A stretch of 52,857 nucleotides of DNA, taken from an uncultured Akkermansia sp. (GTDB taxonomy: Bacteria > Verrucomicrobiota > Kiritimatiellia > RFP12 > JAAYNR01). Made by a program: the position numbers and the translations under genes. The stretch lies in the NCBI GenBank assembly GCA_964580075.1, contig CAZOJL010000005.1, positions 8,013 through 60,869 of the forward strand. The letters run 5' to 3'. Positions 26,484 to 51,298 of this stretch are shown piece by piece; the stretch's first letter is position 1; every line of letters starts with the position of its first letter. The notes beneath the pieces are model-generated. The model was given only the letters and a program-made list of their open reading frames with translations, was not told where the DNA came from and did not search any database.

Positions 26484-26590
26484 CGATCAGTGATCGGTGT
26501 TCAGGTGTCCGTTGGATGCCAATGCCAGTTGCATGACCAAGGGCATCACCATTGGGTGCGAAGCCCACTGATCACGGATTACGGATCACG
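26484..26590. repeat. Heptamer-arm palindromic element with CACCATTGGGTG core
   Basis: Homologous to 43845-43960 (GGATGCCAATG..TGCAT.ACCA.GGGCA.CACCATT.GG.GCGAAGCCCACTGATCAC). Confidence 0.8.
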
Positions 26591-26626
26591 TAAAGCGAAT
26601 GGGTAAGCTGAACTGACGGATTGCGG

Positions 26627-27178
26627 ATGAATGTACTGATCCCCTTGGCCGAGGGCTTTGAAGAGAGTGAAGCCGTGGTTGTGATTGACGTCCTGCGTCG
26701 CGCGGGCCTGACGGTCACCTCCGTCGCGATGCGCGACGATCTGCAGGTCACCGCTTCGCGCGGGGTGGTCCTGGTGGCCGATGCCCTCTGGGCGGCGGTT
26801 GATCCTGACGCGTTTGACGCGCTGGTGCTCCCCGGCGGGGGGCCGGGTACGGAACGGCTGAAGGCCGACACACGCATCCTCGACGCCGTGCGCGCCTTCA
26901 ATGCGCAGGGCAAGACGGTTGCAGCCATCTGCGCCGCGCCGATCGTGCTGGCGGCGGCCGGAATCCTCGACGGCCGCGCTGCCACGTGTTATCCCGGCTG
27001 CGAGAAGGCGCTTGCGGGGGCCCGCTACACGGCCCGGGGGGCGGTCGTCCACGACGACAACGTCATCACCAGCCAGGGCCCCGGCACCAGTTTTGCCTTT
27101 GCGCTGGCGCTGGTCGCGCGTCTGGCCGGAAAAGAGGTTGCCGCGAAGGTCGCAAAGGGACTGCTGGTGCAGGCGTAA
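26627..27178 (+). CDS. DJ-1/PfpI (YajL/ThiJ) family protein
   Basis: GFEESEAV..IDVLRRAG, LPGG, AAICAAP (nucleophile Cys), ITSQGPGT. Confidence 0.92.
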   Translation: MNVLIPLAEGFEESEAVVVIDVLRRAGLTVTSVAMRDDLQVTASRGVVLVADALWAAVDPDAFDALVLPGGGPGTERLKADTRILDAVRAFNAQGKTVAAICAAPIVLAAAGILDGRAATCYPGCEKALAGARYTARGAVVHDDNVITSQGPGTSFAFALALVARLAGKEVAAKVAKGLLVQA

Positions 27179-27189
27179 GACAATTGATT

Positions 27190-27335
27190 CTAAAAAGGGC
27201 AGAAGACTGTGAGGCTGTAAGGATGCACGGTAATCTGACACCATTGGGTGAACCCGATTCTTGCGAACTCCTTGAACTCATCCCTTTCCATTCCAAATAC
27301 TTCCTTCGTGATCTTCGTGTCCTTCGTGGTAAAAA
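27190..27335. repeat. Chimeric palindromic element (octamer left arm, nonamer right arm, CACCATTGGGTG core)
   Basis: Left part matches ~51132-51175; right part matches the reverse complement of ~41254-41366. Confidence 0.8.
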
Positions 27336-27364
27336 ATTGCCAACGTTATTTTCGGTGGAGGGCA

Positions 27365-29593
27365 CTAGAAGCCAAAGTCCTCGCTGACATCGGATAGTCC
27401 GAACCGGTTTTCCATCCCGATCAGCGTGAGCATCAACCCGATCTTGAAGTTGGCGCCGCTGGTCACGCCATTGACGTCGGTCCATTCCGGCTCGTAGCCC
27501 GTGCGGAGTTGGAACGCCATACAGTCGAGGCTGTACTGGACGTAGCCCGCGATTTCCTGCAGCCGCGACTGCTCGATCTCGTAGCGCACATCCGCTCCGA
27601 CCGACCACACGGTATTGAAGGTGTGTTTGACGCCTCCGTAAAGTACGTGCGCGACCGGCTCTCTGACCCACCACGCGCCAAACGGGCTGAGTGTCAGATT
27701 CTTGCGGTAGAACTGTCCGCCGCTCACCTCCCAGTTGTGCGTCCGCCAGAAAAACGCGTTATCCGCCAGCCGGAGCTCGTTGTCCTCGGGATCAAACTCG
27801 ACGGTCGAACGGAAGCGGAGATTCGGCTGTGGCGTCACCTCCAGCATCCCGCCGATGATCCGCACGCCCTGCGGCTCGCGATAATCGCCGAAGGAATAGG
27901 CGGAGTAGAGGTCGGACTCGACGACCGTCCGATGCTGCCCGGCGGCCCCGCCCACCTGCAGCGTGTTGCGCACGCCGAAACGGACGCCGTGCCATTGACG
28001 GGGCAGCGGGAGGCCGTCAAAACCGAACCCATCCCGCCATTCGAGCGCGGCGTCATACCGATCAAACACATACGGTTCGCCATCCTCCAGGTCGTGCGGA
28101 CGGGGCATCCAACTGTAGTCCAGATAGGGCTCGATCACATGCCGGTAATCGCCAAAAGTGCCGTATCCTTTGAGCGAGGCTTCGGCGCCCAGTTCGAACA
28201 GGTTCCTGACTTTCCCTGAATCCTCAACCCGCGCCTGCCGGTAGAACGTGCCGCGGTAGCCGGCCCGCGGCACGACCCGGACCAGATCCGCCACCCAGAA
28301 CGGCACGGAGAGGCGGTGGGCGGTGTCGACGCGGGCGGTCGCGTACTCGGGCGGCCTCGGCCCCACGATCGGATCACGGGGTGCGGTCTGCTTGCGGAGA
28401 TATCCGGCGCGGCTCTGCGATTCATAATAGAGACCGGGAATCAGCGGTTGCGGCATGATGTTCAGCCACGCCTCCGGCAGGCGCTGCACACCGTCGTAGA
28501 ATTCATCCAGCGGTCCTGAGATCGTCACGCCTCCCGCGCCAGCCGCTTCACGATGCGTATAGGACAGGACGTTGTCCGGCTGGACGGAACGCCGGTACTC
28601 CGGATTGAAGAACGCCTCCCGCAATTCGGGATCGCTCACGATCTGACCTTTCACGAAGATGCGGTCTTTCGGCGTCAAGTCGGCCTCGTGCTCGAGCGCG
28701 ATCCGGCTGCGGTCGCTCTTGGCGTCGACCCCGGGGAACAGGCGCAACTCATCGGGGTCCCGATCATCGGCATAATAGAGTTCGATCCGGCCTTTGCCGG
28801 TGGCGCCCAAGTCCCATGCAAAGTCATGCCCGAGGCCGATCCCGCGCGCGCTGCGGTAGTCTACCCGCAACTGCCCGGTCACATGCACACCCTCCGGGGC
28901 GCGAAAATAGGGATAGACGTAGCGGCCCAGGGCGAATACACCCCAGTCCGACGTGTAACCCGGCAGGAGGCGCACGCCATAGTGCGTGTCGAGGGCGCGG
29001 TACCAGTACGGGACGTAGGCTACCGGCACGCCCATGAACCAGACTGCTCCATGCCGGGCGGACAGATAACGACCGGGCTGATAGTTGACCGCGCCGGTCG
29101 ACAGATGCCAGTGCCAGAAATCCGGGGCGTTCGTACAGGTGGTCATCGCCACGTCGCGGAACACGATTTTTCCGTCGGGTTGCCGTTCACTGCTGGCGGC
29201 CTTCACAGTGAAGCGTCCGGCCTTGACCTGGCTCGTATCGACGAGCCCAGCCCCGGTCCGGTGGTTGAAGACCATCCGCTCCCCCGTCCACTCCCCGAGG
29301 CCGGGCCGCGACAGCCGCACATCGCCGACGGCTTGCACGTCCCCTGTGCGCTGGTTGAGGATGATCTGATCGGCATGGACGACCATCGTCGAATTGCTGA
29401 TCGTCACATCACCCGTGCCGGTCCAGACGCCAGTCTGGTTGTCCATATCGTGTTTCAGAGCCGTGACGGTGATCGGTTCATCCGGATCGACAAACCCCAA
29501 CTTCTCGGCGGCATCCTGAATCCGCGTCTGCGCCCCGACGTGACCCGCTGTGGCCAGTGCAAGCAGAATCGTCCCCACAATCGTGATTTTCAT
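27365..29593 (-). CDS. lptD: LPS-assembly protein LptD (OstA family)
   Basis: Signal peptide, N-terminal beta-jellyroll-like region, TTC motif, GVPVAYVPY, PGYTSDWG, beta-barrel-like C-terminus. Confidence 0.8.
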   Translation of the reverse strand: MKITIVGTILLALATAGHVGAQTRIQDAAEKLGFVDPDEPITVTALKHDMDNQTGVWTGTGDVTISNSTMVVHADQIILNQRTGDVQAVGDVRLSRPGLGEWTGERMVFNHRTGAGLVDTSQVKAGRFTVKAASSERQPDGKIVFRDVAMTTCTNAPDFWHWHLSTGAVNYQPGRYLSARHGAVWFMGVPVAYVPYWYRALDTHYGVRLLPGYTSDWGVFALGRYVYPYFRAPEGVHVTGQLRVDYRSARGIGLGHDFAWDLGATGKGRIELYYADDRDPDELRLFPGVDAKSDRSRIALEHEADLTPKDRIFVKGQIVSDPELREAFFNPEYRRSVQPDNVLSYTHREAAGAGGVTISGPLDEFYDGVQRLPEAWLNIMPQPLIPGLYYESQSRAGYLRKQTAPRDPIVGPRPPEYATARVDTAHRLSVPFWVADLVRVVPRAGYRGTFYRQARVEDSGKVRNLFELGAEASLKGYGTFGDYRHVIEPYLDYSWMPRPHDLEDGEPYVFDRYDAALEWRDGFGFDGLPLPRQWHGVRFGVRNTLQVGGAAGQHRTVVESDLYSAYSFGDYREPQGVRIIGGMLEVTPQPNLRFRSTVEFDPEDNELRLADNAFFWRTHNWEVSGGQFYRKNLTLSPFGAWWVREPVAHVLYGGVKHTFNTVWSVGADVRYEIEQSRLQEIAGYVQYSLDCMAFQLRTGYEPEWTDVNGVTSGANFKIGLMLTLIGMENRFGLSDVSEDFGF

Positions 29594-29626
29594 AGGCACC
29601 CCTGAACGTCAGGCGTTCGTTTGGCG

Positions 29627-31222
29627 TTAGTTGGACTTCGAGTCACCGATAGAATACACGACTTTCCCCGTGTTTGTCTCTAAAATCTGAAATGATTCTG
29701 GATGACGGTACGGTTCCGATCGGAAGGTCACCTTGCCGGGGTAGTTGCTTTGGAGCTGCACCAGCATCGCTTCGTCGGTCGAGCGGAGGCGGTCCAAAAC
29801 GAGCGGGGCGATCAACACCTGCAAATCGCAAGCGTTCCCATCCTTGCGATTTTTGCGCATCACGGCGGCAATCTGCCGTTGGATGTCGACACTGAGCGAA
29901 AGCGGCGACTTGATCACGCCGTGCCCCCGGCAGTAAGGGCAGTCGATGTACGTCTGCGAGAGGAGGCTCTCTTCCTGGCGCTGACGGGTCATTTCCATCA
30001 GCCCGAGTTCGGAGATCGGCAGGACGTTGGTGCGGGCTCGATCGCGTTTCAGCGCGGCCTTCATCGTCTTGAAGACCGCAGCCTGATGCTTGCGCGGCTT
30101 CATATCGATCAGGTCGACCACCACCAAACCGCCGATGTTACGCAAACGGAGCTGCCGGGCTACTTCTTCCACGGCCTCCATATTGACATCAAGAATCGCC
30201 TCCTCCTGGGACCCCCTGCCGCGGTGGCGGCCGGTGTTGACATCGATCGCGATCATCGCCTCGGTCTCGTCGATCACCAGATGCCCGCCCGATTTGAGCG
30301 CGACTTTGCGTCGAAAGGCATCATCAAGCTGCCGTGCCACGCCGTAATGCTCAAAGATGGGCAACTGCCCCTCGTAATGGGCGATCATTCCCTTGGCCCG
30401 GCGCGAGATGCGGGCGGCCATTACGCGGATGCGCTCATAGTCATCGGCATCGTCGATCACCACCCGGTCAATCTCTTCGGTGAGCCAGTCGCGGACGATT
30501 CGTTCGATCAGGTCGGGTTCCTGATAGACGCAGCACGGTCCGGGCTTCTCCTTGATATTCTTCTGCAGGTCCTCCCAGACGGCCAGCAGACCGCGCAGGT
30601 CCCGGACGAAGGCCCGCTTGCTGGTGCCCGCTCCGGCGGTTCGCACGATCAGTCCGGTCTCGGCGGGGAGCGGCAACCGGTCCAGTATCCGCTTCAGCCT
30701 CTGGCGCTCCTTGCTGTCGCCGATCTTACGCGACACGCCCCGCAGTTTGCAGCCGGGCATCATCACCAGATACCGTCCCGGAATGCTCAGGTTGGCCGAC
30801 ACCCGCGGCCCCTTGGTGCCGATCGGCCCTTTGGTCACCTGGACGATCACCTCGGATCCCTGCGGGAAGCGTTTGGCGATCTCGTCACTCGAAATGCGCC
30901 GTTTGCGCGAGCGGTTGGAATCGTCGTCGTCATCCAGGAGCCCTTCGTCATCCGGGATCATATCCCAATAGTGCAGAAACGCGTTCTTCTTGAGGCCGAT
31001 ATCGACAAACGCGGCCTGAAGCTCATTCTCCAGATTCTGGATTCGTCCCTTGTAAATACTGCCGACGAGCCGATCCTCCATCGGATGCTCGACCTGAAAC
31101 TCCTCGATGTGGCCGTTCTCCACCACCGCCACCCGCGTCTCCAACTTTTCAGCGTTAACGATAATCTCGCGTTTCGGCTCCTTGCGCCGAAACCAACTGA
31201 ACACGATATCCAAGCCTCCCAT
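29627..31222 (-). CDS. rng: Ribonuclease E/G family (RNase G-like)
   Basis: GSIYKGRI..LQAAFVDIG S1 domain, IDVNTG, LRLRNIGG..VVD.IDM, CPYC Zn-link; syntenic with mre genes. Confidence 0.9.
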   Translation of the reverse strand: MGGLDIVFSWFRRKEPKREIIVNAEKLETRVAVVENGHIEEFQVEHPMEDRLVGSIYKGRIQNLENELQAAFVDIGLKKNAFLHYWDMIPDDEGLLDDDDDSNRSRKRRISSDEIAKRFPQGSEVIVQVTKGPIGTKGPRVSANLSIPGRYLVMMPGCKLRGVSRKIGDSKERQRLKRILDRLPLPAETGLIVRTAGAGTSKRAFVRDLRGLLAVWEDLQKNIKEKPGPCCVYQEPDLIERIVRDWLTEEIDRVVIDDADDYERIRVMAARISRRAKGMIAHYEGQLPIFEHYGVARQLDDAFRRKVALKSGGHLVIDETEAMIAIDVNTGRHRGRGSQEEAILDVNMEAVEEVARQLRLRNIGGLVVVDLIDMKPRKHQAAVFKTMKAALKRDRARTNVLPISELGLMEMTRQRQEESLLSQTYIDCPYCRGHGVIKSPLSLSVDIQRQIAAVMRKNRKDGNACDLQVLIAPLVLDRLRSTDEAMLVQLQSNYPGKVTFRSEPYRHPESFQILETNTGKVVYSIGDSKSN

Positions 31223-31240
31223 GTGCCTCTCTTCCCGCCA

Positions 31241-34341: not shown

Positions 34342-34831
34342 CCTGTTCCGCTCCTTTCACGTTTCCGGCCAGGCCGTCAAGCCACCCGCACACAGCAAAA
34401 ACAACCCATCCCACGATCGCTCCCACGGCGGCCGCAGGGGCTAGTCCCTGAATACAGTCATCCCCGCGGATGCCGCCCACGGCCACGGCGTACCACACCG
34501 TCTGCGCCGGCGCCGCGACCGCCATGATCGCCATCCCCCGCCAGAAGGTTTCCCCCGAAAAGGAGCGCCGCACATAGCGAATCAGACCGCAGAGGACCAG
34601 CAACCAGACCGTCGTCACGGGGAACGGAAAGCCGCTGCAGACGTCGGTGAGCGCGCCGATCCAGAGCGCCGCGGTCATCGCCAACGACATCTCGCGCGAC
34701 AGGGCGTAATAAGCGGCGACGGCCGTGAGCAGCGGCGGCTTCATCGCCAACCAGCTTGCGGTCGGCAGCACCGTCTGGACGGCGCCGGCCGCCACGGTCA
34801 ACGACAGCAGAACGGGGAGGTCCAGCCTCAT
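34307..34831 (-). CDS. mreD: Rod shape-determining protein MreD
   Basis: Hydrophobic 174-aa protein with a G...D motif, between mreC and mrdA. Confidence 0.75.
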   Translation of the reverse strand: MRLDLPVLLSLTVAAGAVQTVLPTASWLAMKPPLLTAVAAYYALSREMSLAMTAALWIGALTDVCSGFPFPVTTVWLLVLCGLIRYVRRSFSGETFWRGMAIMAVAAPAQTVWYAVAVGGIRGDDCIQGLAPAAAVGAIVGWVVFAVCGWLDGLAGNVKGAEQGDGVPWHNANV

Positions 34832-35682: not shown

Positions 35683-35755
35683 TCCGCCCCGTTAGCTCCT
35701 CTGAATCGGGGGGGAAGTCGGCCCGCACTCAAGATACTCGATACCCACGTCCTCG

Positions 35756-36889
<1,134 letters not shown>

Positions 36890-37022
36890 TCAAATGGACC
36901 GATTCGGAGGGTGCAGCCGGCGCGGAAACCGCCCCTCCCTGATCACCCCCACACACTCCCACACTCGCCTCCACGCTTTTCCTTTGGCATTCGCCCGTAT
37001 CTGTCGGCGCGGCGGGACGCCC

Positions 37023-37159
37023 AATGGCGCTAAGTTAAGGGACTTTTGGGATTCATAATCTTAATCTTAATCATAATCTTAATCATTCATAGAGAATGGA
37101 TTACGATTAAGATCACGATTACGATTAAGACGGGAAATCAGCCTTAACTTAGCACCATT
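37023..37159. mobile_element. 137-bp MITE with IS4-like ends, copy 2
   Basis: TIR AATGGCGCTAAGTTAAGG / CCTTAACTTAGCACCATT. 12-bp direct repeat CGGCGGGACGCC at 37010-37021 and 37160-37171. Confidence 0.88.
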
Positions 37160-37252
37160 CGGCGGGACGCCGCTGCCCTACCGGCGCTGCGCGCATTCAC
37201 CCACACACCCTCTCCAATCTCTCTCCCCGTGTCTCCGTGCCTCTGTGTTAAA

Positions 37253-37314: not shown

Positions 37315-37334
37315 CTCCACTCCCACACGTCCCC

Positions 37335-40118: not shown

Positions 40119-40308
40119 GGGCGCATGGCAGTTCTGATGAGGTCGTTGATTCGTACTCATAATCGTAATCGTAATCATAATCGTAATCTTGCTTTGACCA
40201 TGCATGTGATCGTACACTGTCACCAATGAATACGGATTAAGATTATGATTAAGATTAAGATTAAGATTAAGATTAAGGAGTAACACTCATCAGAACTGCC
40301 ATGCGCCC
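40119..40308. mobile_element. MITE with 23-bp TIR GGGCGCATGGCAGTTCTGATGAG, copy 1
   Basis: Perfect TIR; 10-bp TSD CCCGTGCAGG (40109-40118, 40309-40318); hexamer arms inside. Confidence 0.92.
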
Positions 40309-40356: not shown

Positions 40357-41214
40357 ATGATGGAGATCAAACCGTTCGGCCACCGGGATATTCCGGCGGC
40401 GTTGAACCTGTGCGCACAAGTCAATTGGAACCATCTGGAAGCGGACTGGAATCGCTGTCTGGCCCTGAATCCGGACGCCTGCCTGGGGGGCTTTGAGGAC
40501 GGCGCCCTGAAAGCTACCTGCACGCTGACGCCGTTCGGAACGATCGGCTGGGTGGGCACGTTTCTCGTGGACCAGAGCTTGCGCGGCAAGGGGCATGGAA
40601 AACGGCTCTTCGAGGCGATGCTGGAAACGGCCCGGAAGCAGGGAATCGCCTGTCTCGGACTCGATTCCTCGGACGCCGGCCGGCCGATCTATCTTCAGTA
40701 CGGATTCCAGATGACCGGCGAGGGAATCGAACTCTGGACCTGGCCGACCAACGGCGACGCGGATCCGCATGAGGCCGCTCGGCCCCTGCAAGATTCGGAT
40801 TGGGCCAGCCTGCTTGCCTTCGATCAGGCGCGCGTCCAGGTGCCACGCGCACAACAACTCCGGATGCTGGCCGGCGAGCCGGGGACGTCGGTACGGGTGA
40901 TAATGACGAACGGCACGCTCTGCGGATTCGGGTTTTCGCGGCCGGGACGGTTGTCGGGCGCGATTGGCCCGGTCGTGGCCCGCGACACTCCGACCGCCTG
41001 CCGGATCGTCTCCGCGCTCCTCGCCGACCGGGCGCATCTCGACGGCGCAAAAGCCGTCGCACTGGCCATCCCCGACAACGACCCGTTCAAAGCGTGGCTG
41101 GCCGGTCTCGGCTTCCAGATGCGCCGGCGTAACATTCGCATGTTCCGCCCCGAAATCCGCTCCATTCTCTCAGGCCCCTCCGTCTTCGCTACCACCGGTT
41201 TGGGAATGGGATAA
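40357..41214 (+). CDS. GNAT family N-acetyltransferase (two-domain, YitH-like)
   Basis: VDQSLRGKGHGKRL motif A, GRPIYLQYGF, IGPVVA. Confidence 0.88.
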   Translation: MMEIKPFGHRDIPAALNLCAQVNWNHLEADWNRCLALNPDACLGGFEDGALKATCTLTPFGTIGWVGTFLVDQSLRGKGHGKRLFEAMLETARKQGIACLGLDSSDAGRPIYLQYGFQMTGEGIELWTWPTNGDADPHEAARPLQDSDWASLLAFDQARVQVPRAQQLRMLAGEPGTSVRVIMTNGTLCGFGFSRPGRLSGAIGPVVARDTPTACRIVSALLADRAHLDGAKAVALAIPDNDPFKAWLAGLGFQMRRRNIRMFRPEIRSILSGPSVFATTGLGMG

Positions 41215-41216
41215 TC

Positions 41217-41425
41217 CTAAAAACGGCAGTTGAACCTAAAAAACGGCAGTTTACACCACGAAGAACACGAAGAGCACGAAGGAAATCTTTGGAATAGAAA
41301 GGGATGAGTCCAAGGAGTTCGTCAGAATCGGGTTCACCAAATGGTGTCCGATCACCGTGCATCCTCATCACCTTTATCCCCTCATTCTTCTTATCTCTTC
41401 GTGATCTTCGTGTGCTTCGTGGTTC
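41217..41425. repeat. Nonamer-arm palindromic element with CACCAAATGGTG core and a duplicated CCTAAAAACGGCAGTT end
   Basis: ACCACGAAGAACACGAAGAGCACGAAG ... CTTCGTGATCTTCGTGTGCTTCGTGGT. Confidence 0.85.
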
Positions 41426-41517
41426 ATCTCCGTCGGGTTGAGCCGTTGCGCACGTGAAAAAAAGCGGCGGCGCGCCGCGCCGCAGGCCAATGGAGAGGAG
41501 AAGGGTTCGGGGTTCAG

Positions 41518-41750
41518 ATCGTTGTCATGATCGTTGTCGCGATCGTTGTCGAATGGATCGAGACAAGGATTATGACAACGATTGGAGAACGGTGGACGAC
41601 TACGGCGACGATTACGGTTTACGCGGAGAGGCTCTCTAATCGTCTACCGTTATCGTCGCCCGTAATCGTCAACCAAAACGAAGCAAAAGGAGAGGCAGAT
41701 GAGGCGGATTAGGACGTTGGGTGTTGGGCGTTGGTTGTTGGCGTTGGTGC
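41518..41750. repeat. Cluster of short-period repeats: (GATCGTTGTCNN)3 with an inverted partner, a GACGACTAC/GTAATCGTC palindrome, a TTGGGCG-type tandem
   Basis: Read directly from the sequence. Confidence 0.65.
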
Positions 41751-41963
41751 CCCGCAACGCTGCGTCTGACGGCTTGCGTCCGGGGGGGGGTTGCAGGATT
41801 GTTTGCATGACCCTCTTTCGCTTGCGCTTCGGGGGGGTGAGAGACTATGCTTCATGTTGCTGGGATTGGCTGGGCCCATTCCTACACGGTTCCGCATGCG
41901 GCGGGCAGATCCGTAAAAAAAAGAAGCCGTGAACGGTTACAGCAGGAGCGAAAGGACAATGCA

Positions 41964-43832
41964 ATGAAGGACGCATCCACCATGAGACTCGTGTTCGTGA
42001 CTCTCGCCGCCGGGTGTGCCGCACAGGGCGAAGGGTCCCCGGCCACCCAGGCCCGCGACTTGACGCCTGTGACCCTGCAACCGGCGCCGTCGCACCAGCC
42101 CGTGGACATCGTCAAAGCCGGGCAGCCGGTGGCCAAGGTCTACGTCGCCGACGCCAAACCCAGTGCACACCTCCAGACGCTGATGAATGAACTTCTGACG
42201 GTGGTCAAACTGAGCACCGGGGCCGATCTGGCGCTGCTCAAGACCGAGCCGGCCGCCGACGTCCCGGCCATCATTATCGGCGACTGCCCCGAGTCCCGCG
42301 CAGCCGGCGTTGACGCCGCCAAACTACCGCTTGGAGGCTTCGAGGTCAAGACGGCCGCCAACCGGGTCTATCTCGTCGGCAGCACCATTCCGCTACCCTC
42401 GAACACGGGCCTGTCGGACCCCTACTCCAACGAAGGCACCGCCTACGCCGTGGCAGACTTCCTGGAGCGCTTTCTGGGCGTGCGCTGGTATTGGCCGACC
42501 GAGGCCGGCGGGCGCACCATCACCCAGACGACGGACTTGGTCATCGCGCCGGTCTGTTACCGCGATGCGCCAGTCTTCCAGATGCGCAACCACCACCCCG
42601 CCGACGGGTACGGCGGCACATGGAAGTCGCGCTGGTTCGACAAGCAACAACAGCCCCCGCGCCCGCCCGCGCTGAAGGATCTCGAGACCCTCAACTTGCG
42701 TCCGATGCTGCACTGCCTACGCGCCGGCAACACCTGGCCGTACCTCACCAAGGTCCACGAGCCTCAACAACTCTTGCGCAGGGGGGCCGAGTGGCGGAAG
42801 CAGAACGAAGCCATCTTCGCCATCCGCAAGGACGGCAAGCCCAGCGGCGTGCTTTGCTACAGTTCGCAAGCCGCTTTAGACTTCCTTATGAGCGGCTGCG
42901 AGAGCGTGTGGGAGAAGGGACTGGGCGCCTCCTGGGTGACGGAGATGTACCTGAGCATCTCCCCCGGCGATGAACCCATGAACTGCCAGTGCGTGGAGTG
43001 CCAGAAGCGGTGGGACCCCAACTCGCCATGGCACGGCCACATCAGCGGCCAGGCATCCAAGATCCTTGGCACCTTCGTGAAGAAGGCCTGCGAGGAGGTC
43101 AGGAAGCGCTGGCCGGACAAGAAAGTCGTCTTCCTGCCGTACTGGAACTATGCCCTCTGCCCGGAGGGGGTCGAGTTCCCCGACAACCTTCGCATCGAAA
43201 TGTGCTCCACGTCCATGGCCGGCCTGCGCCAGCCCGAACTGCGCAAGCTGATTGACCAGGACATCCGCGCTTGGGCCAGACAGACCGGCGGGAAGATCAG
43301 CACGTGGGAGTACACCACCTGGGTGACCGGCTGGACGCATGCCCCATTGCAGTTCCCCCACGTGGCGCAGGAGTATTACCGCGGCAACCGAGATGTGCTG
43401 GCTGGCTCGTTCCTGAACGGCGAGAACATCTCGGAATGGTCCAGGAACGCCCCCACGCTCTACTGCATCATGAAGGTGCTGTGGAACCCGGATGTGAACA
43501 TCGACGCGATCCTCGATGAGATGTGCATTCGACTCTACGGCAAGGGGGCCGGCAGCGCCCGCAAGCTCCTGACTCTGATGTGCGACCGCTGGGAGAAAGC
43601 CCCGTGGCGACAGCCCCTCAGCGCCGATGGGCACCTCTCGCCGGTTATCTTCACCGACACTTGGCCGCCGGAGGTCGTCTCCGAGATGGAGAAGCTGTGG
43701 CGTCAGGCGCGCGAGGAAATGAAGGACGATGCCCTTGCCCTCCAGCGCTTCGACTACTGGAACTGGACATTCGAGGCATTCCTCAATGAAGCTAAGGAGG
43801 AATGGGCCAAGGCCGGGCAAAAGAGCCCATAA
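41964..43832 (+). CDS. DUF4838-like secreted putative glycoside hydrolase
   Basis: GTAYAVADFLERFLGVRWYWP, LCYSS, ISPGD...CQC.EC, LWNP motifs; N-terminal signal-like segment. Confidence 0.75.
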   Translation: MKDASTMRLVFVTLAAGCAAQGEGSPATQARDLTPVTLQPAPSHQPVDIVKAGQPVAKVYVADAKPSAHLQTLMNELLTVVKLSTGADLALLKTEPAADVPAIIIGDCPESRAAGVDAAKLPLGGFEVKTAANRVYLVGSTIPLPSNTGLSDPYSNEGTAYAVADFLERFLGVRWYWPTEAGGRTITQTTDLVIAPVCYRDAPVFQMRNHHPADGYGGTWKSRWFDKQQQPPRPPALKDLETLNLRPMLHCLRAGNTWPYLTKVHEPQQLLRRGAEWRKQNEAIFAIRKDGKPSGVLCYSSQAALDFLMSGCESVWEKGLGASWVTEMYLSISPGDEPMNCQCVECQKRWDPNSPWHGHISGQASKILGTFVKKACEEVRKRWPDKKVVFLPYWNYALCPEGVEFPDNLRIEMCSTSMAGLRQPELRKLIDQDIRAWARQTGGKISTWEYTTWVTGWTHAPLQFPHVAQEYYRGNRDVLAGSFLNGENISEWSRNAPTLYCIMKVLWNPDVNIDAILDEMCIRLYGKGAGSARKLLTLMCDRWEKAPWRQPLSADGHLSPVIFTDTWPPEVVSEMEKLWRQAREEMKDDALALQRFDYWNWTFEAFLNEAKEEWAKAGQKSP

Positions 43833-43844
43833 TGCTAATAAGAG

Positions 43845-43960
43845 CAGTTATCAGTGATCAGGTGTCAGGTGTCAGGTGGATGCCAATGACATGTGCATAA
43901 CCACGGGCAGCACCATTTGGCGCGAAGCCCACTGATCACTGATGACTGATCACTGGTCAC
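43845..43960. repeat. Heptamer-arm palindromic element with CACCATTTGGCG core
   Basis: (TCAGKKR)n left arm and (ACTGATC)n right arm; homologous to 26484-26590. Confidence 0.8.
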
Positions 43961-43967
43961 TCGTCCA

Positions 43968-44096
43968 TAAGTTAAGCGATGCTTCCGATCATAATCCTAA
44001 TCGTAATCCTAATCGTAATCCGTTCTCCACCAGTCGATTAAGATCAAGATTAGGATTACGATTAAGATGGCAATAGCCCCTTAACTTAGCGCCATT
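43968..44096. mobile_element. IS4-like-end MITE, copy 3 (inverted relative to copy 1; first 8 nt of one TIR missing)
   Basis: Near-identical to the reverse complement of 13846-13974; intact end CTTAACTTAGCGCCATT. Confidence 0.85.
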
Positions 44097-44296
44097 CAGA
44101 CCCGTCCCTACTCGACATCCCTACTCGACCTAGCAACAGCATCGCCAGCGAGCTCGTCATCACGGTCACCGACGCCTCCGGCGCCCTCTTTGCCGAACCC
44201 TGAACCCTGAAAACTGAAACCTGCTCCCTGCTCCTTCCCCGTCCTCTTCGACCGGGGCCTGTTGGCGATGGCTGTTTGTTCAGAACCCGCTGATGC

Positions 44297-45502
44297 CTAC
44301 CCCCGGTACGCCGGCGGCTTGGGATTGAGCCACTTCAGGATTTCCGGACGGATGGCGTAGGCGAACCAGAAGTTGCCGGGAGGCGTATGGTGCCCGAACA
44401 CCTGAGCCCCGGCACGGGCCACAAAGAAGCGATTGAAGAAATCCTCGTTCGACCCCTTGAACAGCTTGCGCTCCTCGCGAAACTTCGGCAGGGTGTCGAT
44501 GTAAAGGTACTTCTCCTGGTCCAGGAAATCCACAAACGGTTGATCGAACCGTTTTCCGGTCTTGAAGTAGCGTTCGATGGTCGGCACATCGTAACTCAGC
44601 ATGATCATGAACTTGCGCTTGTTGGCCTTGCACCACTTACGGAACTTGTCCACGGTGTACATGGTGGAGCGAATGCCATAAGCGAGATGCAGCTTCTGGG
44701 CATCCGCCTGACGGGTCTTGGCATTGCGCAGGTTGACTTTGACGCCCAATGCCTCGGCCAGTTTCTCAGCCGCTTCGACCGGCGCCTCGCCGCCTTCGCG
44801 CAGACAGTACAACTGGGCGCCCGCGTCGTCCTTGAAAGCGTTGTAGTAGTTCTCCTGCCCCACGAGCTCGCGGAGATCCGTAGCCTTCGCGCACATGCCG
44901 GGCCGCTCGACCCACTTCCCCTTGTCCACGTCGAAACGAAGATGACACCACGGGAACCCGTGCACCGGGTAGCCATCCCGTTTCCCGCGCGGCAGGGCCC
45001 GGCACATCCACGCGACACGCACCCAGCGCGCGGCGTCTATGTTTCGCATGTAGTCGTCATCCCACACATTCAGGATGATGTTCTCCGCGGCCACCTCTTT
45101 GATGGCCTCCATGCGCATCGCGCGCCGGTAGGCCTGATACACACCGTATCCGCCAACGCCGAAGTTCCGGATCGGCTCGCGGAAATTGGCTGCCAGAAAT
45201 TCCTGCCAGGTTTCGCCGTTGCTCACCTGCGCGCCCTGCGTGTAGCTGTCGCCATAGGTGTTGATCCGGCACGGCTGATCCGCGTAGTTGATCAGGGTGC
45301 GGTTGAAGAAACGACGATCATAGGTCCCCAGCGTGACCGTCCCCTCCATGCCGTCCTTCATGCAATGATCACTGTGGATATATCCTAGTTCGGGATCGAA
45401 CGTGAGAATCGCCGGATTCTTCGGATCCATGTACCGTTCAATTTCAACCGAATGGTACGCACAGGTGTGCAGCAGGTGCTTCAAGTCTTTGAGGTCGCTC
45501 AT
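44297..45502 (-). CDS. SGNH/GDSL-like hydrolase domain protein
   Basis: YGDSYT block I, NFGVGGYG block II, C-terminal GHHTPPGN. Confidence 0.65.
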   Translation of the reverse strand: MSDLKDLKHLLHTCAYHSVEIERYMDPKNPAILTFDPELGYIHSDHCMKDGMEGTVTLGTYDRRFFNRTLINYADQPCRINTYGDSYTQGAQVSNGETWQEFLAANFREPIRNFGVGGYGVYQAYRRAMRMEAIKEVAAENIILNVWDDDYMRNIDAARWVRVAWMCRALPRGKRDGYPVHGFPWCHLRFDVDKGKWVERPGMCAKATDLRELVGQENYYNAFKDDAGAQLYCLREGGEAPVEAAEKLAEALGVKVNLRNAKTRQADAQKLHLAYGIRSTMYTVDKFRKWCKANKRKFMIMLSYDVPTIERYFKTGKRFDQPFVDFLDQEKYLYIDTLPKFREERKLFKGSNEDFFNRFFVARAGAQVFGHHTPPGNFWFAYAIRPEILKWLNPKPPAYRG

Positions 45503-45627
45503 GGGGATACTCCGTGTTAAGAATCGTGCGAAAGGTCCGGGCCCACACCCGCCACATTCGCCCTGAAAGCGGGATGTGAAAGGCGTGAGAATAATAAAGA
45601 GAGAGCCGAAGGGTCAAGCAGAATAGG

Positions 45628-47079
45628 TCACAGCTTCAACGCCCCGAAGGCATCGCCCAGGCTGCCGAGACCCTTCGCGGGGGGGTTGGACGAGGCCAGG
45701 AAGCTCGACACCTCGTCGTCCTCCCCCGCACCCGCCGTCCGCGCCTGCCATGCGGCCGGCGTGGTCAATGAAATGCGGCTTCCCTCGACCGACTTCACGA
45801 TCAGCTTGACCGCGGAACCGGGAGCAAACATCCGCTCCAGTTTGCTCGCCGGCGCGCCGCCCTTGGCAATGCCGGTCTCGCTGATGTGGAGCAGACCGGT
45901 TTTCTCCTCGGAGATCCGGACGAACACGCCGAATTCCTTGATCCCCTCGACGATTCCCTCGACCTCGCTTCCCGGCGCCAGTTCACCCGGCTTGAGCGCC
46001 TGCACACGCTCGTCGACCGGTTTCAGGCCGATGCGCCGACGCTCGGGATCGATGGTTTCGACCTGGAGCAGCATCTCCTGCCCCTCGCTCACGACCTCGC
46101 GCGCTGAGAGGATGCGGCGGCCGTTTCCCAACTTGCTGATCGGCACCAACCCGTCGACCCCGGGGAGGATGGAGACAAAAGCGCCAAACCGTTCGATGTG
46201 CGTCACCTTCGCCGTCAACGTGCTGCCCACCGGATAGCGCGACACTGCGTCGTGCCACGGGTCGCTCTGGGTCGCGCGCAAGCTGAGCGAGATGCGGTTG
46301 CGCGCCAGGTCTATCTCGCGCACCTGCACCTCGACCGTGTCGCCCGCCTTGGCCACATCCTCCGGCTTCGTATCGCGCACCCAGGAGAGTTCCCGGAGCG
46401 GCACCAGACCGTCCACGCCGCCCAGATCGACGAAGATGCCGAATTCGGTCAGCCGCGAAACCACGCCTTTGCGCACATCCCCCTCGCGCAGACCCGCCAG
46501 CAGCGCGTCGCGCTGCACCTCGCGCTCTTTTTCGAGCAAGTCGCGGCGGCTGAGGACGACATTGCGCCCCTCTTCGCCATATTCGGTCACCAGAAAGGCG
46601 AATTTCTGGCCGACGTATACCGCATCCTCGGTTTTATGCAAGTCGATCTGCGAATAGGGGCAGAAGGCGCGGGCCGCGCCGACCGTCACCTCGTATCCGC
46701 CGTTGACCTCGCTTGCGACCAGACCCTCGACCGGCTGGCCATTTTCAAAGGCACGGGCGATCGATTGATGCGCGATCACCGTGCCCGAAAACCGAAGGGA
46801 ACAGAGAAATGAACCGCCCTGCATCGCAGTGAACATGACGGTGAGACTGTCGCCCGGTTGAACCGTCGGTTCGCCCGCTTCGTTCAGCAGTTCCGCGATC
46901 GGGAGCAGACCCTCATTCTTGGCCTGAACGTCCAGCACCGCATAGGCGTCGTTCAGCGCCAGCACGCGCGCGCGCACCCGATCACCCGGATTGAAGCCCT
47001 TGTGGTAGGTCGCCGTCTGCCCGTCCAGCAACGCCTCAAAAGCGGCCATCGCCGCCGAATTGCCCGTCTGTTGTGCCAT
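45628..47079 (-). CDS. Ribosomal protein S1-like multi-S1-domain protein
   Basis: About five S1 repeats (EGLLPI, AFCPYSQID, FGIFVDLGGVDGLV, FGAFV..GVDGLV, FGVFV..GLLHISE). Start at the ATG at 47079. Confidence 0.85.
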   Translation of the reverse strand: MAQQTGNSAAMAAFEALLDGQTATYHKGFNPGDRVRARVLALNDAYAVLDVQAKNEGLLPIAELLNEAGEPTVQPGDSLTVMFTAMQGGSFLCSLRFSGTVIAHQSIARAFENGQPVEGLVASEVNGGYEVTVGAARAFCPYSQIDLHKTEDAVYVGQKFAFLVTEYGEEGRNVVLSRRDLLEKEREVQRDALLAGLREGDVRKGVVSRLTEFGIFVDLGGVDGLVPLRELSWVRDTKPEDVAKAGDTVEVQVREIDLARNRISLSLRATQSDPWHDAVSRYPVGSTLTAKVTHIERFGAFVSILPGVDGLVPISKLGNGRRILSAREVVSEGQEMLLQVETIDPERRRIGLKPVDERVQALKPGELAPGSEVEGIVEGIKEFGVFVRISEEKTGLLHISETGIAKGGAPASKLERMFAPGSAVKLIVKSVEGSRISLTTPAAWQARTAGAGEDDEVSSFLASSNPPAKGLGSLGDAFGALKL

Positions 47080-47299
47080 AAGTCCGATTCCTTGATGACC
47101 GGCCGAACGCGTCGCACACGCGGGCGCTTCCCGATCTGAAAGTGACATAGTGTAACCGAACGGCAGCGTTCCGGCAACGCTGGAACGCGACAGTATTATG
47201 AAAATTGAAGTGTCCGGCTGTCCATGGGTTGCGCTATAGTGGTTGCCGTCTGGTGCGACAATGCCGGTTGTCGCGCGGGTTTTTCGGAAGGGGTGGGCG

Positions 47300-48682
47300 G
47301 TGTCGGTGCGGGTTGACATTGTGATTGTGGCGCTGAACGCGCGGTACAGCCATTGCGCCCATGCCGCGCGTTCCCTGATGGCCAATCTCGGGGCACTGCG
47401 GGAGCGGGCCGAAATCATTGAGTCCGACACCGTCGTGCAGCCGTTCCAGCTTGCCGCCGCCGTGGCGGCCCGGCGTCCGCGAATCGTCGGATTTTCCGTC
47501 TACCTCTGGAATGCGGCGTGCGTGCGGGAGACGGCGCTGATCTTGCGGCGGGTTTCGCCCCACACGCAGATCGTCCTGGGCGGCCCCGAGATCGTCGCAG
47601 GCGATGACGCGCGCTGGATCGGGGTGGCTGACGCGCGGGTTACGGGCGAAGGTGAAACCGCCTTCCGCGACCTGTGCGCCGAGGCGCTGGCCGGCGGACC
47701 GATTTGCGAGGCCGACGGCTCCGCGCGCGGGGTCTGCGGCGCCGCGACGTCCCTGGCCGATCTGGAGCTCCCCTACGCGCTGTACACGGCCGACGATCTG
47801 GCGCGGCGCACCCTCTATGTCGAAAGTTCACGCGGCTGCCCGTTCGGATGCACGTACTGCACCTCCTGCCACACCCCCTTTCGTCGCTTCGATCCCGGGC
47901 GGCTGGCCGAAGCCTTCGACAGCCTGATCGCGCGCGGCGCGCGCGCCTTCCGCTTCCTGGACCGCAGCTTCAATGCCGATGAAGCCCACGCCTGCGCCAT
48001 CCTGGAGCTGTTTCTCGCCCGCCATCCGGGACAGTTTCAACTGCATTTGGAGATGATGCCGAGGCGGTTTGGGGAACCGCTGCGCCGCGTTCTTGCCGCC
48101 TTTCCACCCGGCGCCCTCCATTTGGAAGTCGGCGTGCAGACGCTCAACCCCGCGGTCGCACGCGCCGTCGGACGCAACGGCGATGTCGCGACCGTGCTTG
48201 ACGCGCTTGCATTCCTGATTCACGAGGCCCGGGCGACCGTCCACGCCGACCTTATTTTTGGGCTTCCGGGAGAGGACGAAGCGTCCTTCGCAGCGGGTTT
48301 CGACCGCCTGGTGCGCGACCTTGCTCCCCCCGAACTCCAGGTCAACCTGCTCAAGGGGCTTCCCGGGACGCCCCTCACGACGCCCGGCGCCGCACCCGGC
48401 CTGGTGTTCAACCCCAATCCGCCCTACGAATTGCTCCGCAGCGACGTGATCGATTTCGACATCATCACCCGCATGCAGGGCTTCGCGCGCTGCTGGGAGT
48501 TGATCCACAACCGCGGACGCTTTCCGGAGGCCGCCCGCGCGATCTGGGCGCGGGGCGATGGCTCGCCGTACGCCCGCTACATGGCGCTCTCCGAACGCAT
48601 TCTCGCAACCGAAGGCCGGCTCTATGCGCTCGGCACACCCCGCATGGCAACCCACCTTGAAGCCTTCCTGCGCGACCTCTGA
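47300..48682 (+). CDS. B12-binding radical SAM protein (DUF4080-type)
   Basis: LNARYSH, GFSVYLWN, VLGGPE, SRGCPFGCTYC, FLDRSFN, HADLIFGLPGE. Start approximate. Confidence 0.88.
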   Translation: MSVRVDIVIVALNARYSHCAHAARSLMANLGALRERAEIIESDTVVQPFQLAAAVAARRPRIVGFSVYLWNAACVRETALILRRVSPHTQIVLGGPEIVAGDDARWIGVADARVTGEGETAFRDLCAEALAGGPICEADGSARGVCGAATSLADLELPYALYTADDLARRTLYVESSRGCPFGCTYCTSCHTPFRRFDPGRLAEAFDSLIARGARAFRFLDRSFNADEAHACAILELFLARHPGQFQLHLEMMPRRFGEPLRRVLAAFPPGALHLEVGVQTLNPAVARAVGRNGDVATVLDALAFLIHEARATVHADLIFGLPGEDEASFAAGFDRLVRDLAPPELQVNLLKGLPGTPLTTPGAAPGLVFNPNPPYELLRSDVIDFDIITRMQGFARCWELIHNRGRFPEAARAIWARGDGSPYARYMALSERILATEGRLYALGTPRMATHLEAFLRDL

Positions 48683-48724
48683 CCCGCGCGGACGGTTCCC
48701 GGCCCGAAACCGTTCAAATCGCTA

Positions 48725-48895
48725 GGGCGCATGGCAGTTCTGATGAGGGTTACTCCTTACTCGTAATCGTAATCGTAATCTTAATCGTAATCTTAATCTT
48801 AATCTTAATCCCCCAACCATGGTCAAAGCAAGATTACGATTATGATTACGATTATGATTACGAATCAACGACCTCATCAGAACTGCCATGCGCCC
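48725..48895. mobile_element. MITE with 23-bp TIR, copy 2 (inverted relative to copy 1)
   Basis: Same TIR; 9-bp TSD AAATCGCTA (48716-48724, 48896-48904). Confidence 0.92.
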
Positions 48896-48986
48896 AAATC
48901 GCTACACACTCATCTATTTGGTGGACATTTCTCATTGTTTCGATTATCGTAGAAAATTCTTTCTTTAAGCCAAAAAAGGGTGCGCA

Positions 48987-49226
48987 ATGGACCAGTCATT
49001 TTTGTTAAAAGAGGGTTTTTTGTTGATGATGGTCGGAATGCTGATCGTCTACGCGTTCCTGATGGTCTTGGTCGGCGCGCTGTCGTTTTCAAAGTTCTTT
49101 CAGCGATTCTCTCATTTGCTGCCTGACGACGAGCCGACCGCCCCGCGCAGGCCGATGCCCGCGCCGCAGGCGGCCGACGATGCCGCCCGGATCGCAGTCG
49201 CCATCGCGGTCGCGAAGCGACGTTGA
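48987..49226 (+). CDS. oadG: Na+-translocating decarboxylase gamma subunit
   Basis: GMLIVYAFLMVL TM, Pro/Ala linker, IAVAIA end; directly upstream of oadA. Confidence 0.85.
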   Translation: MDQSFLLKEGFLLMMVGMLIVYAFLMVLVGALSFSKFFQRFSHLLPDDEPTAPRRPMPAPQAADDAARIAVAIAVAKRR

Positions 49227-49282
49227 TTTCCGTATTCCTCACGCCTTCCCCACCCCACTAGTCCACCAAAGGAGTTTGAACC

Positions 49283-51088
49283 GTGGCCCAGAAACAAGTC
49301 CGATTCATGTGCACCGCCTTTCGCGACGGGTTCCAATCCGTTTACGGCGCCCGCGTCCTGACCGAGGATTTCATGCCGGCCATTCACGCCGCGCGCGAAG
49401 CCGGCATTTCTTATTTTGAAGCCGGCGGTGGCGCGATGTTCCAGTCGCCCTTCTTCTATTGCAACGAAAATGCGTTCCACATGATGGATCGCTTCCGGGA
49501 AGTGGCCGGCCCCGACGCCAATCTTCAGACGCTCGCGCGGGGCGTGAACCTCGTCTGCCTGGATTCGGCATCCTCCGACGTGATCGCGCTGCATGCGAAA
49601 CTCTTCAAGAAGCACGGCATCACCACGATTCGCAACTTCGACGCCCTGAACGACGTCAACAACCTCGTGTATTCGGGAACATGCATCCATGAGGCAGGGC
49701 TCAAGCACCAAGTCGTGGTCACGATGATGGCGCTTCCGCCCGGCTGCACCGGCGCGCATGATCCCGATTTCTATGAGATGACCCTGCGGGATATCCTGAA
49801 GGCGGAAATTCCGTTTGATTCGGTCTGCTTCAAGGACGCCTCTGGCACCTCGATTCCCGCCATCGTGTTTGAGACCATCAAACGGGCGCGCCGGCTCCTC
49901 CCCCAGGGGACGCAGCTCCAGTTTCATACGCACGAGACCGCCGGGTGCGGCGTCATTTCGTACAAAGCCGCGCTCGACGCCGGCGCCGACGTGATTGACC
50001 TTTCGCTCGCCCCCGTCTCCGGTGGCACCTGCCAACCCGATGTGATCGTCATGTGGCATGCCCTGCGCGGCACCGAATACGATCTGGGCGTGGACATTGA
50101 CAAGGTGCGCGAGGCGGAGGTGGTCTTTCGCGATTGCATGAAGGACTACTTCCTCCCGCCCGAGGCGACTTCCGTCGAACCGCTGATTCCGTGGTCGCCC
50201 ATGCCGGGCGGCGCGCTTACCGCAAACACCCAGATGCTGCGCGACAACAACCTCATGCATCGCTACGGCGAGATGATTGGCGCCATGTCCGAGGTGGTCC
50301 GGCGCGGCGGGTTCGGCACCTCCGTCACCCCGGTCTCCCAGTTCTATTTTCAACAGGCCTTCAACAACGTGATGCACGGCCCCTGGAAAAAAATCGCGCC
50401 GGGCTACGGCAAAATGGTTCTCGGCTATTTTGGCAAGACACCGGTTCCGCCGGATCCCGAGATCGTCGCAATCGCCGCCGAGCAACTCAAGCTCCAGCCC
50501 ACCACCAAGACGGTGCTGGAGAACAACGACGCCGATCCCAAGAAATCGCTCGACTTCTTCCGGAAAATGCTCACCGACACAGGGCTGCCGCTGACCGATG
50601 AGAATGTCTTCATCGCCGCCGCCTGTCAGGAAAAAGGAATTCTTTTCCTCGAAGGCAAGGCGACGCTCGGCATCCGCAAGAAGGCGCCACCGAGTGCCGC
50701 CCCGGCGGCAGCCGCACCCCGGACCGACGACGTCTGCACCGTCACGGTTGGCGGGAAAGCCTACACCGTCGCATTTCAAGGCGACCAGGCGGTCGTCAAT
50801 GGCCAGACCTATCCGTTTTCCGTCACGGCGGGGGCGCCCGAGCCCACCGCGTCTGCGGCGGCTCCCGCGTCGGCCTCCGTGCCGATCACCGCACCGGTAC
50901 CCGGCATCATTTTGCGCATCACCGCGCATCCCGGTCAGACGGTCAAGGCGGGTGACGAGATCCTGATTATGGAGGCGATGAAAATGGAGATGCCGGTCAA
51001 GGCGCCGTCCGCCGGCATTGTGTCGTCCATCGAGGTCACGCAAGCCCAGAAAATCAACACCGGCGATATTCTGGCCCACATCTCCTGA
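49283..51088 (+). CDS. oadA: Oxaloacetate decarboxylase alpha subunit (carboxyltransferase plus biotin carrier)
   Basis: FRDGFQS, FKD, FHTH, PGG, VTP.SQ, and the biotinylation motif EAMKM. Confidence 0.9.
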   Translation: MAQKQVRFMCTAFRDGFQSVYGARVLTEDFMPAIHAAREAGISYFEAGGGAMFQSPFFYCNENAFHMMDRFREVAGPDANLQTLARGVNLVCLDSASSDVIALHAKLFKKHGITTIRNFDALNDVNNLVYSGTCIHEAGLKHQVVVTMMALPPGCTGAHDPDFYEMTLRDILKAEIPFDSVCFKDASGTSIPAIVFETIKRARRLLPQGTQLQFHTHETAGCGVISYKAALDAGADVIDLSLAPVSGGTCQPDVIVMWHALRGTEYDLGVDIDKVREAEVVFRDCMKDYFLPPEATSVEPLIPWSPMPGGALTANTQMLRDNNLMHRYGEMIGAMSEVVRRGGFGTSVTPVSQFYFQQAFNNVMHGPWKKIAPGYGKMVLGYFGKTPVPPDPEIVAIAAEQLKLQPTTKTVLENNDADPKKSLDFFRKMLTDTGLPLTDENVFIAAACQEKGILFLEGKATLGIRKKAPPSAAPAAAAPRTDDVCTVTVGGKAYTVAFQGDQAVVNGQTYPFSVTAGAPEPTASAAAPASASVPITAPVPGIILRITAHPGQTVKAGDEILIMEAMKMEMPVKAPSAGIVSSIEVTQAQKINTGDILAHIS

Positions 51089-51129
51089 GGTCCTCCTTGC
51101 CTGCCAGACCCGTCCACGTGACAGAATAA

Positions 51130-51298
51130 CCCTAAAAAGTTCAGAAGACTGTGAGACTGTGAGGCTGTAAGGATTGGGAGGCAATCGGTTATGAAAACGG
51201 GAGCTGTTCACCATTGGGTGCGTGCGAATAAATCTGTAACCTGTTCATTTTCAAACTCATAGCCTTACTGCCTTTCAGCCTATAGCCTTCTTTAGGAT
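51130..51298. repeat. Octamer-arm palindromic element with CACCATTGGGTG core, bounded by CCTAAA...TTTAGG
   Basis: (GRCTGTRA)n left arm and (NNNAGCCT)n right arm; between oadA and oadB. Confidence 0.75.

Follow-up and report, generated by a model that had tools for sequence, protein, structure and literature searches.

Miniature inverted-repeat transposable elements (MITEs) of bacteria, such as Correia, ERIC, and Nezha, are short, non-coding, hairpin-forming elements present in multiple copies, which possess terminal inverted repeats, are flanked by target duplications, and borrow their termini from autonomous insertion sequences (ISs). Among the latter, members of the IS1380 family have termini beginning with CC and target duplications of 4–5 base pairs (bp), as catalogued in ISfinder. 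One branch of this family is represented by ISEcp1. Few mobilisers of cephalosporin-resistance genes are as important as this element, whose left end also works together with substitute right ends that match poorly. Among eukaryotes, piggyBac is named as the counterpart of IS1380-like elements (PMC5718144); its left end contains a palindromic internal repeat, which is described as bound and bent by a dimer of the cysteine-rich domain (PMC7351741). The features of bacterial MITEs listed above recur in elements carried by a stretch of 52,857 nucleotides (nt) from the genome of an uncultured Akkermansia sp., which was analysed as a whole and is called the window here (C5:8013–60869 of assembly G000; 3.68 Mb, 287 contigs, completeness 92%). 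Five elements and one fragment in the window are copies of a MITE superfamily with a common 12-nt core; their assignment to MITEs and to IS1380 is close to certain, and the role of the core, probably that of a site for the transposase, is the main subject of this work.

A MITE superfamily built around a 12-nt core

Matches to the core pattern, CACCATTKGGYG, are found where the earlier note had placed them, at 26547, 27239, 41335 (minus strand), 43911, and 51209 of the window. Only 0.01 would be expected by chance, and five were reached in none of 100 shuffles. Throughout the genome, the pattern matches 37 times (17 forward, 20 reverse), compared with 0 for the reversed pattern used as control. 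All 37 matches lie inside repeat elements, and the sequence 3' of the core divides them into four families, A (15 matches), B (16), C (4), and D (2). The arms differ in the way described before, since heptamer, nonamer, and octamer arrays beside the cores are returned by Tandem Repeats Finder, with periods of 7 (43858–43878, 43930–43961), 9 (27303–27328, 41257–41281, 41396–41421), and 8 (51146–51168, 51261–51289) in the window. In minimum-energy folds of seven representative elements, computed for both strands as RNA and DNA alike, the two arms form a long stem, and the CACC/GGTG mini-hairpin, likewise anticipated in the note, appears with four pairs at or near the apex in most cases.

The CCTAAAAA/TTTAGG boundaries noticed in the window are terminal inverted repeats, and the one at 2599–2606 is the end of a sixth, truncated copy of family C (2553–2606). 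All families A–D start with a CCTAAAAAGGGCAG-type sequence and close with its complement ...TTTAGG; the 14-mer CCTAAAAAGGGCAG occurs genome-wide 12 times exactly and 31 times with at most one mismatch (reversed control, 0 and 2). Element copies were collected by BLAST with one representative per family (A–D), which yielded 116 matches at 96 loci, including truncated copies, hybrids, and deletion derivatives. This approach was preferred because a loose regular expression for the termini, applied genome-wide with end pairing, matched no more often than its reversed control (144 versus 150) and gave only 11 pairs. In the 14 copies of the same genome in which both termini were located by strict search, the 5-bp direct repeats outside the termini, which are target-site duplications, are identical in 8 and differ by at most one base in 12, following the pattern W-T-N-A-W with T at position 2 in 12/12 and A at position 4 in 12/12.

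The elements are 150–210 nt long, and no transposase gene is present within those of the window. They are non-coding, given that the reading frames of the core differ across families A, B, and C where a start codon is present at all, and that copies with 1- and 2-base deletions and with stop codons exist. Comparison of empty and filled sites, another check that had been suggested, is informative for the family B copy at 51131–51296, the only site that could be scored cleanly: the genes flanking it are directly adjacent in all four same-genus genomes compared (G001–G004), so the site is empty in 4/4.

Two further families come from G014, a genome of a different family within the same order. Family E comprises ten near-identical copies whose core reads CACCATTGGGCG; their termini are CCTAGAAACAGCAG and their arms ACACGGAT/ATCCGTGT, and TTGAA is an example of their target duplications. 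Family F combines CCTAGAAACAGCAG termini with CGCGAAAGA/TCTTTCGTG arms and a one-base variant of the core, AACCATTTGGTG. Among representatives of the six families, core windows are all that is common at word lengths (k) of 8–10 with at most one mismatch, and at k = 7 one terminal-repeat window is shared as well. The core occupies the geometric centre of the element, at left/right distances of 77/75 nt in family A, 76/73 in D, 77/76 in E, 98/99 in C, and 99/99 in F; in family B the distances are 78/76 in copies of 166 nt and 70/77 in the representative, which has one arm unit fewer. No multi-copy family with the same termini and without the core was found among 66 terminal-repeat-like sites, and core-less derivatives with these termini are single copies only, of 33 nt (C137) and 65 nt (C198). 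The former (C137:8386–8418) consists of two terminal repeats back to back and is flanked by TTGAA/TTCAA. A GGAT[GT] tetramer is also seen 3' of the left arm in all six families, although it is too short to be evaluated.

The arms are modular, being swapped between families, and the centre can flip between them. The hybrid at 27189–27330, which combines the left part of family B with the centre and right arm of family C, demonstrates the former, and one family A copy (C43) has a different right arm. At one genomic site, G002 carries a family A copy and G000, G003, and G004 a family B copy. Aligned with the family A representative, the G002 copy has outer parts that match in reverse-complement orientation (52/55 and 35/40 positions) and a centre that matches in the forward direction (60/67), from which it follows that the centre has been flipped between inverted arms.

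An IS1380-type partner with the same motif in its left end

The CC-initial termini and the 5-bp duplication pointed to the IS1380 family, a lead that was then tested. The model NF033539 was searched in 21 relatives and subsequently in 151 genomes of the order, and two kinds of IS1380 elements emerged. The higher-scoring kind (G004, G014, and type I of G012) was rejected as the partner of the MITEs, as its termini are related but different and the motif is missing; contig ends of G001 and G010 hold N-terminal IS1380 fragments of this non-partner type. The lower-scoring kind has the termini CCTAAAAAGAGCAGTTG, identical to the family A terminus, and 5-bp duplications; it measures 1714 bp in G012 (L080, L081) and has relatives in G037 and G098. 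Its transposase of 515 amino acids (L081:1384–2931) matches PF13701 with 75.1 bits (cut-off 34.7), has NF033539 as its best NCBIfam match at 157 bits, below the cut-off of 180 for that model, and shares 23.7% identity with the ISEcp1 transposase (tblastn, E = 2e-16). Judged by these sequence features, the partner is almost certainly an insertion sequence of ~1.7 kb of the IS1380 family, within the ISEcp1 branch, that possesses the termini and target duplication of the MITEs. An autonomous element enclosing an open reading frame (ORF), for which the earlier note had proposed to look, is represented by this IS in genomes of the same order. No such copy was found in the genome of the window, where eight orphan terminal-repeat sites were inspected and showed no transposase. 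Similarly, no autonomous copy was recognised among 17 terminal-repeat matches in G014, the seven outside family E being family F copies or truncated ends.

In the partner elements of G012 and G037, a CACC-TATTT-GGTG hairpin lies 75 nt inside the left end, ~70 nt 5' of the start codon. The left end was surveyed in 80 transposase relatives fetched from public genomes (Kiritimatiellia, Lentisphaerae, Burkholderiales, Methylococcales, Endozoicomonas, and others) together with three loci of the order search, 49 of which have a CCTA-type terminal pair. CACC-N5-GGTG is present in the left end of 43 of these 49, at an offset of 73–78 in 20 elements and of 86–89 in 23, and at the corresponding distances from the right end in none of the 49; shuffled left ends gave 9 matches in 9800. 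Only the loop differs among the 15 distinct motif sequences, the four stem pairs being constant. Target duplications of the ISs are identical in 29 of 45 cases and repeat the pattern of the MITEs, with T at position 2 in 29/29 and A at position 4 in 28/29. ISEcp1 itself, taken from a plasmid record, has the terminus CCTAGATTCTACGT and carries CACCCATTGGGTG at offset 76, 110 nt 5' of the start codon. In a Polaromonas plasmid copy, the motif is at about offset 77 and the annotated start codon falls within the loop. Five IS1380-family elements that belong to other subgroups, all from genomes of this order, do not share the termini, and the motif was found in none of them (0/5); in the record of ISEnca1, the left end is cut off by IS26.

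The distance of the motif to the element end is constant, at ~76 or ~87, while that to the start codon varies, from ~−110 in ISEcp1 to ~−70 in the PVC group (Planctomycetota-Verrucomicrobiota-Chlamydiota). In betaproteobacterial copies, the transposase ATG lies inside the CACC-N5-GGTG loop, and in gammaproteobacterial copies the motif is inside the coding region, at codons 9–12 (L180:604–616 and the loci L115, L118, L138, L145, and L150 for these two arrangements). The MITE core equals the IS motif minus one loop base and is situated 76–78 or 98–99 nt from the end, and the offsets 76, 87, and 98 are spaced by about one helical turn. By its sequence and its placement, the MITE core is homologous to the left-end motif of the ISs. 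Given that IS ends, target duplication, and left-end motif all match those of the MITEs, the mobilising protein is most likely an IS1380-family transposase.

The leader of the IS transcripts has features of its own. A segment just 3' of the hairpin, of the GCAACGGTG type (L082, L087, L088, L091, L095, L154, L070, L071, and L073), is complementary to transposase codons 3–7, with compensatory changes between lineages. A second leader stem covers the ribosome-binding site, and the whole looks like a leader that would prevent the translation of read-through transcripts. For ten IS leaders, RNAalifold recovered the hairpin and the stem over the ribosome-binding site, and did not recover the longer pairing seen by eye.

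The core as a candidate transposase site

It is probable, although by a modest measure, that the core is a subterminal cis-acting site used by the transposase for transposition. The transposase would most likely dock on the terminal repeat and also on the core as a second binding site, with piggyBac and its internal repeat as the closest analogue in mechanism. In a MITE, both ends would be served by one central core, equidistant from both tips. Nothing would be required of the arms beyond pairing or maintenance of the spacing; with this as the sole requirement, they could be replaced by any microsatellite and recombined, and the centre could be flipped. A need for the core in cis is suggested by the motif and its spacing having been kept in six families, from two bacterial families, in which all else from tip to centre has been exchanged. 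Moreover, a DNA site for a dimeric protein fits better than an RNA element, because the position is fixed to the end, the sequence rather than the pairing is invariant, the offsets step by helical turns, and a flipped centre is tolerated. The earlier note had suggested recognition by a mobilising or an RNA-processing protein. The former is the best reading, as the core is the sole shared internal block and matches a position-fixed IS left-end motif, and the latter is not supported, as no Rfam family was found at the elements (the Rfam matches of the window, one tRNA and one group II intron domain, are both elsewhere).

A broader proposition, drawn by analogy, is that CACC-N4/5-GGTG, at a depth of ~76 bp in the left end or deeper by one or two helical turns, might be an obligatory second transposase site of the whole ISEcp1 branch and the bacterial counterpart of the piggyBac internal repeat; it is evenly balanced between being right and being wrong. 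If true, the left end would be the dominant one, which would fit the pairing of ISEcp1 with surrogate right ends.

A number of observations weigh against a transposase site. The cognate transposase gene was not found in the assembly of the window by tblastn with the G012 transposase (E ≤ 1e-3), NF033539 has no match there, and no transposase of the partner type came from family-model searches of G003, G004, and G014, the other assemblies with MITEs; G004 and G014 do contain IS1380 copies, but with different termini and no motif. Conversely, G012 carries the IS yet has 0 core matches. Multi-copy insertion sequences are often missing from bins assembled from short reads, which is counted here as an excuse and not as evidence. 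The motifs themselves are not uniform: the loop has five bases in every IS motif and four in every MITE core, 6 of the 49 ISs are without an exact motif in the range of offsets searched, the stem has only 4 bp and is interrupted by an A-C mismatch (GGCG variants) in some copies of family A and in every copy of family E, and the family F core begins with AACC. In addition, the hairpin in PVC-group ISs is immediately followed by a conserved leader whose compensatory pairing covers the ribosome-binding site, and an RNA role in these insertion sequences may exist. Finally, the core decays after insertion. A first test of its conservation was biased, with 11 of 31 rows (the copies of relatives) selected through the core, and was rerun on 20 unbiased family B copies, in which 10 of 240 core cells are substituted compared with 131 of 1540 in the flanks (p = 0.02). 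Thus, the cores of inserted copies decay nearly as fast as the flanks, and no strong constraint acts on each copy. Such decay would be expected of a site needed only in transposition, but the positive support gained from it is weak.

The same decay would also suit a core that has no function in MITEs, being a passive scrap of the left end of the parent IS in six families that arose recently from one ancestral MITE. This is unlikely. It is favoured by the one-base-shorter loop of all MITE cores, suggestive of a single origin, and by MITE-bearing assemblies that lack a cognate transposase, but across six families and two bacterial families nothing else between the termini is still recognisably alike, with 10–12 nt of core and its central position kept; core-less derivatives have remained single copies, and the ten or so near-identical copies of family E, cores intact, speak for recent activity. 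A similarly small probability is given to a core acting in RNA, as a leader hairpin that would control how stable the transposase mRNA of the IS is or how it is translated and, in the MITEs, as the apical hairpin of a long double-stranded RNA stem for a processing or binding protein. In favour of such a role are the apical mini-hairpin in RNA folds of every family and the start codon within the loop of betaproteobacterial copies, as well as the hairpin preceding the paired leader of the PVC group, where a fifth stem pair is G-C in four, U-A in three, and broken in three of ten sequences. The four stem pairs proper show no covariation, the sequence rather than the pairing being kept across the 15 motif variants, and GGCG variants break the stem. 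The position follows the DNA end and not the start codon, which ranges from ~110 nt downstream of the motif to a place that leaves the motif inside the gene; MITEs retain the hairpin and nothing of the leader, one copy has its centre flipped relative to the ends, and Rfam offers no match. The family B MITE is represented in three metatranscriptome assemblies, where contigs over 49300–52700 give it a summed depth of 14–56 compared with 2–5 for the flanks. The DNA run shows 952 versus 19, and such contigs, in which DNA may be present, show no ends, strand, or level.

A site for a host protein (a regulator, nucleoid, or bending protein) that is spread by the MITEs is decidedly improbable. As is usual where dimeric proteins bind DNA, the layout is nearly palindromic (5-2-5; CACCA..TGGTG), and copies are intergenic, by gene starts or ends, one of them ending 5 nt 5' of the ATG at 51303. 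However, the same motif at the same offset in ISs of Enterobacteria, Burkholderiales, gammaproteobacterial lineages, and PVC bacteria points to a factor that is borne by the element or else universal; inserted copies are not protected from decay, and a scan of the complete copy gave 0 promoter- and terminator-like sites. Least credible by far is a small peptide encoded by the centre. Family B contains a frame of 23 codons, with a GGAGG-like site upstream in some copies, and families A and B share a core frame from possible start codons, but relatives have lost the presumed ribosome-binding site, 1- and 2-nt deletions and a stop codon occur among the copies, the sole well-placed frame of family C is in another register, and family E has no start codon. 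On these grounds of frame disagreement, indels, stops, and a lost ribosome-binding site, the peptide was rejected.

Copies in the window, neighbouring repeats, and known systems

The copies in the window are preserved to different degrees. A complete family B MITE of 166 nt is found at 51131–51296 (plus strand), with both terminal repeats, the core at 51209–51220 (78 nt from the left end and 76 from the right), and the identical target duplication ATAAC on both sides (51126–51130 and 51297–51301). Its right tip and target duplication read TTTAGGATAACTATG (51290–51305), which puts AGGA five bases 5' of the start codon of the downstream gene (51303). The family A MITE with heptamer arms at 26484–26626 (plus; core 26547–26558), 82% identical to the family representative over C5:34498–34634, has two degenerate termini, the right one being CTGACGGATTGCGG. 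The hybrid at 27189–27330 (plus; core 27239–27250), where both families B and C match C5:35202–35342, is made up of the family B left terminus and octamer arm and the family C centre and CTTCGTG arm, and its right terminus is missing. The family C MITE with CACGAAG/CTTCGTG arms at 41216–41446 (minus; core 41335–41346; C5:49251–49435, 93%) has the terminal repeat twice at one end (41216–41229 and 41235–41249), the opposite end being degenerate. Another family A MITE at 43834–43963 (plus; core 43911–43922; C5:51847–51973, 91%) begins one base past the stop codon of the ORF at 41847–43832, and its right end is replaced by an abutting hexamer-arm element. The sixth copy, at 2553–2606 (plus), is a right-end fragment of family C without the core, consisting of the CTTCGTG arm and a terminal repeat ending in TTTTAGG; its inner side is cut by a REP-like palindrome. 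The stretch of 3.06 kb at 41224–44281, which contains the family C and family A copies, other repeats, and the ORF of 661 amino acids (41847–43832), is missing in G004, where the flanks abut (C265:455/457), and is hence specific to the genome of the window among those compared.

The REP-like palindrome (GAGGCGCTTGCAA... / ...TTGCAAGCGCCTC) is located at 2543–2556 of the window and also on contigs C4, C17, and C177 of the same genome; it takes the place of the inner part in several MITE copies, in one case precisely at the core. Another hairpin element, ~130–140 nt long, lies at 43968–44109 and has hexamer arms of the TCGTAA/GATTAC type and neither core nor MITE termini. Hexamer-arm arrays are also present at 40151–40277, 48756–48863, 37056–37127, and 13874–13954, and this element is far commoner than the MITEs, accounting for most of the 131 matches obtained when 40700–44500 was searched in five same-genus genomes. 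The Rfam match to group II intron domains D1–D4 (47 bits) at 13958–14168 (minus) adjoins inverted hexamer arrays at 13874–13906 and 13922–13954.

Inverted microsatellite arms are habitual in this genome, and the earlier note had placed similar arms around genes for four-helix-bundle and GxxExxY proteins. In the genome of the window, 16 and 4 matches to such genes were obtained, and at the 13 + 4 sites inspected they lie mostly between inverted microsatellite arms, as stated there, but without these terminal repeats and without the core. A kinship of these cassettes with the MITEs was rejected, microsatellite arms being the only common feature. One cassette (C61:3310–3627) has the arm heptamer CAGGTGT, which is also present in the left arm of family A, and arm units are apparently common to such unrelated element types.

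The elements are ordinary genomic parasites, and IS-derived MITEs are well known as a kind. What may be new is the position-fixed left-end motif common to ISEcp1, its environmental relatives, and the MITEs. A full-text literature search, whose scope excluded most subscription journals, gave no match for the ISEcp1 form of the motif, and the titles and abstracts retrieved on the ISEcp1 left end and transposase binding concern only resistance epidemiology and Sleeping Beauty. Six MITE families alike only in their tips and a 12-nt centre amount to a natural deletion series that points to the left-end motif. Since the transposition pathway of ISEcp1-type elements is stated as not known in a review (PMC9330008), a candidate second transposase site would provide a testable handle on end recognition. 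The elements also show that a mobile element can stay recognisable even when its inverted microsatellite arms are exchanged, shortened, or flipped.

Bacterial MITEs are among the closest known systems. What sets the present elements apart from them are inverted microsatellite arms that vary by family, a single 12-nt central motif in six families, and a centre that recombines or flips. REP/REPIN sequences with their RAYT transposases are likewise intergenic, hairpin-forming, and high in copy number, with a short conserved motif. However, REP elements are not known to have terminal inverted repeats or target duplications and are moved by HUH-type enzymes, whereas both features are present here. 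With ISEcp1 and IS1380, the system has in common a partner DDE transposase matching PF13701 and, with a score below the cut-off, NF033539, termini starting with CCTA, 5-bp A/T-rich duplications, and CACC-N5-GGTG; it differs from ISEcp1 in that the window elements have only 150–210 nt and no transposase gene, and in a partner transposase that is only 23.7% identical. As for piggyBac, its repeat has 19 bp, lies at bp 17–33, and goes with a TTAA target, a type of target that these elements do not have, while the motif here has 12–13 bp, is ~76 bp inside the end, and goes with a 5-bp W-T-N-A-W target. Like the repeat of piggyBac, which is used asymmetrically between the two ends, the near-palindrome here lies inside the left end only, where 43 of the 49 ISs carry it, compared with none in the right end.

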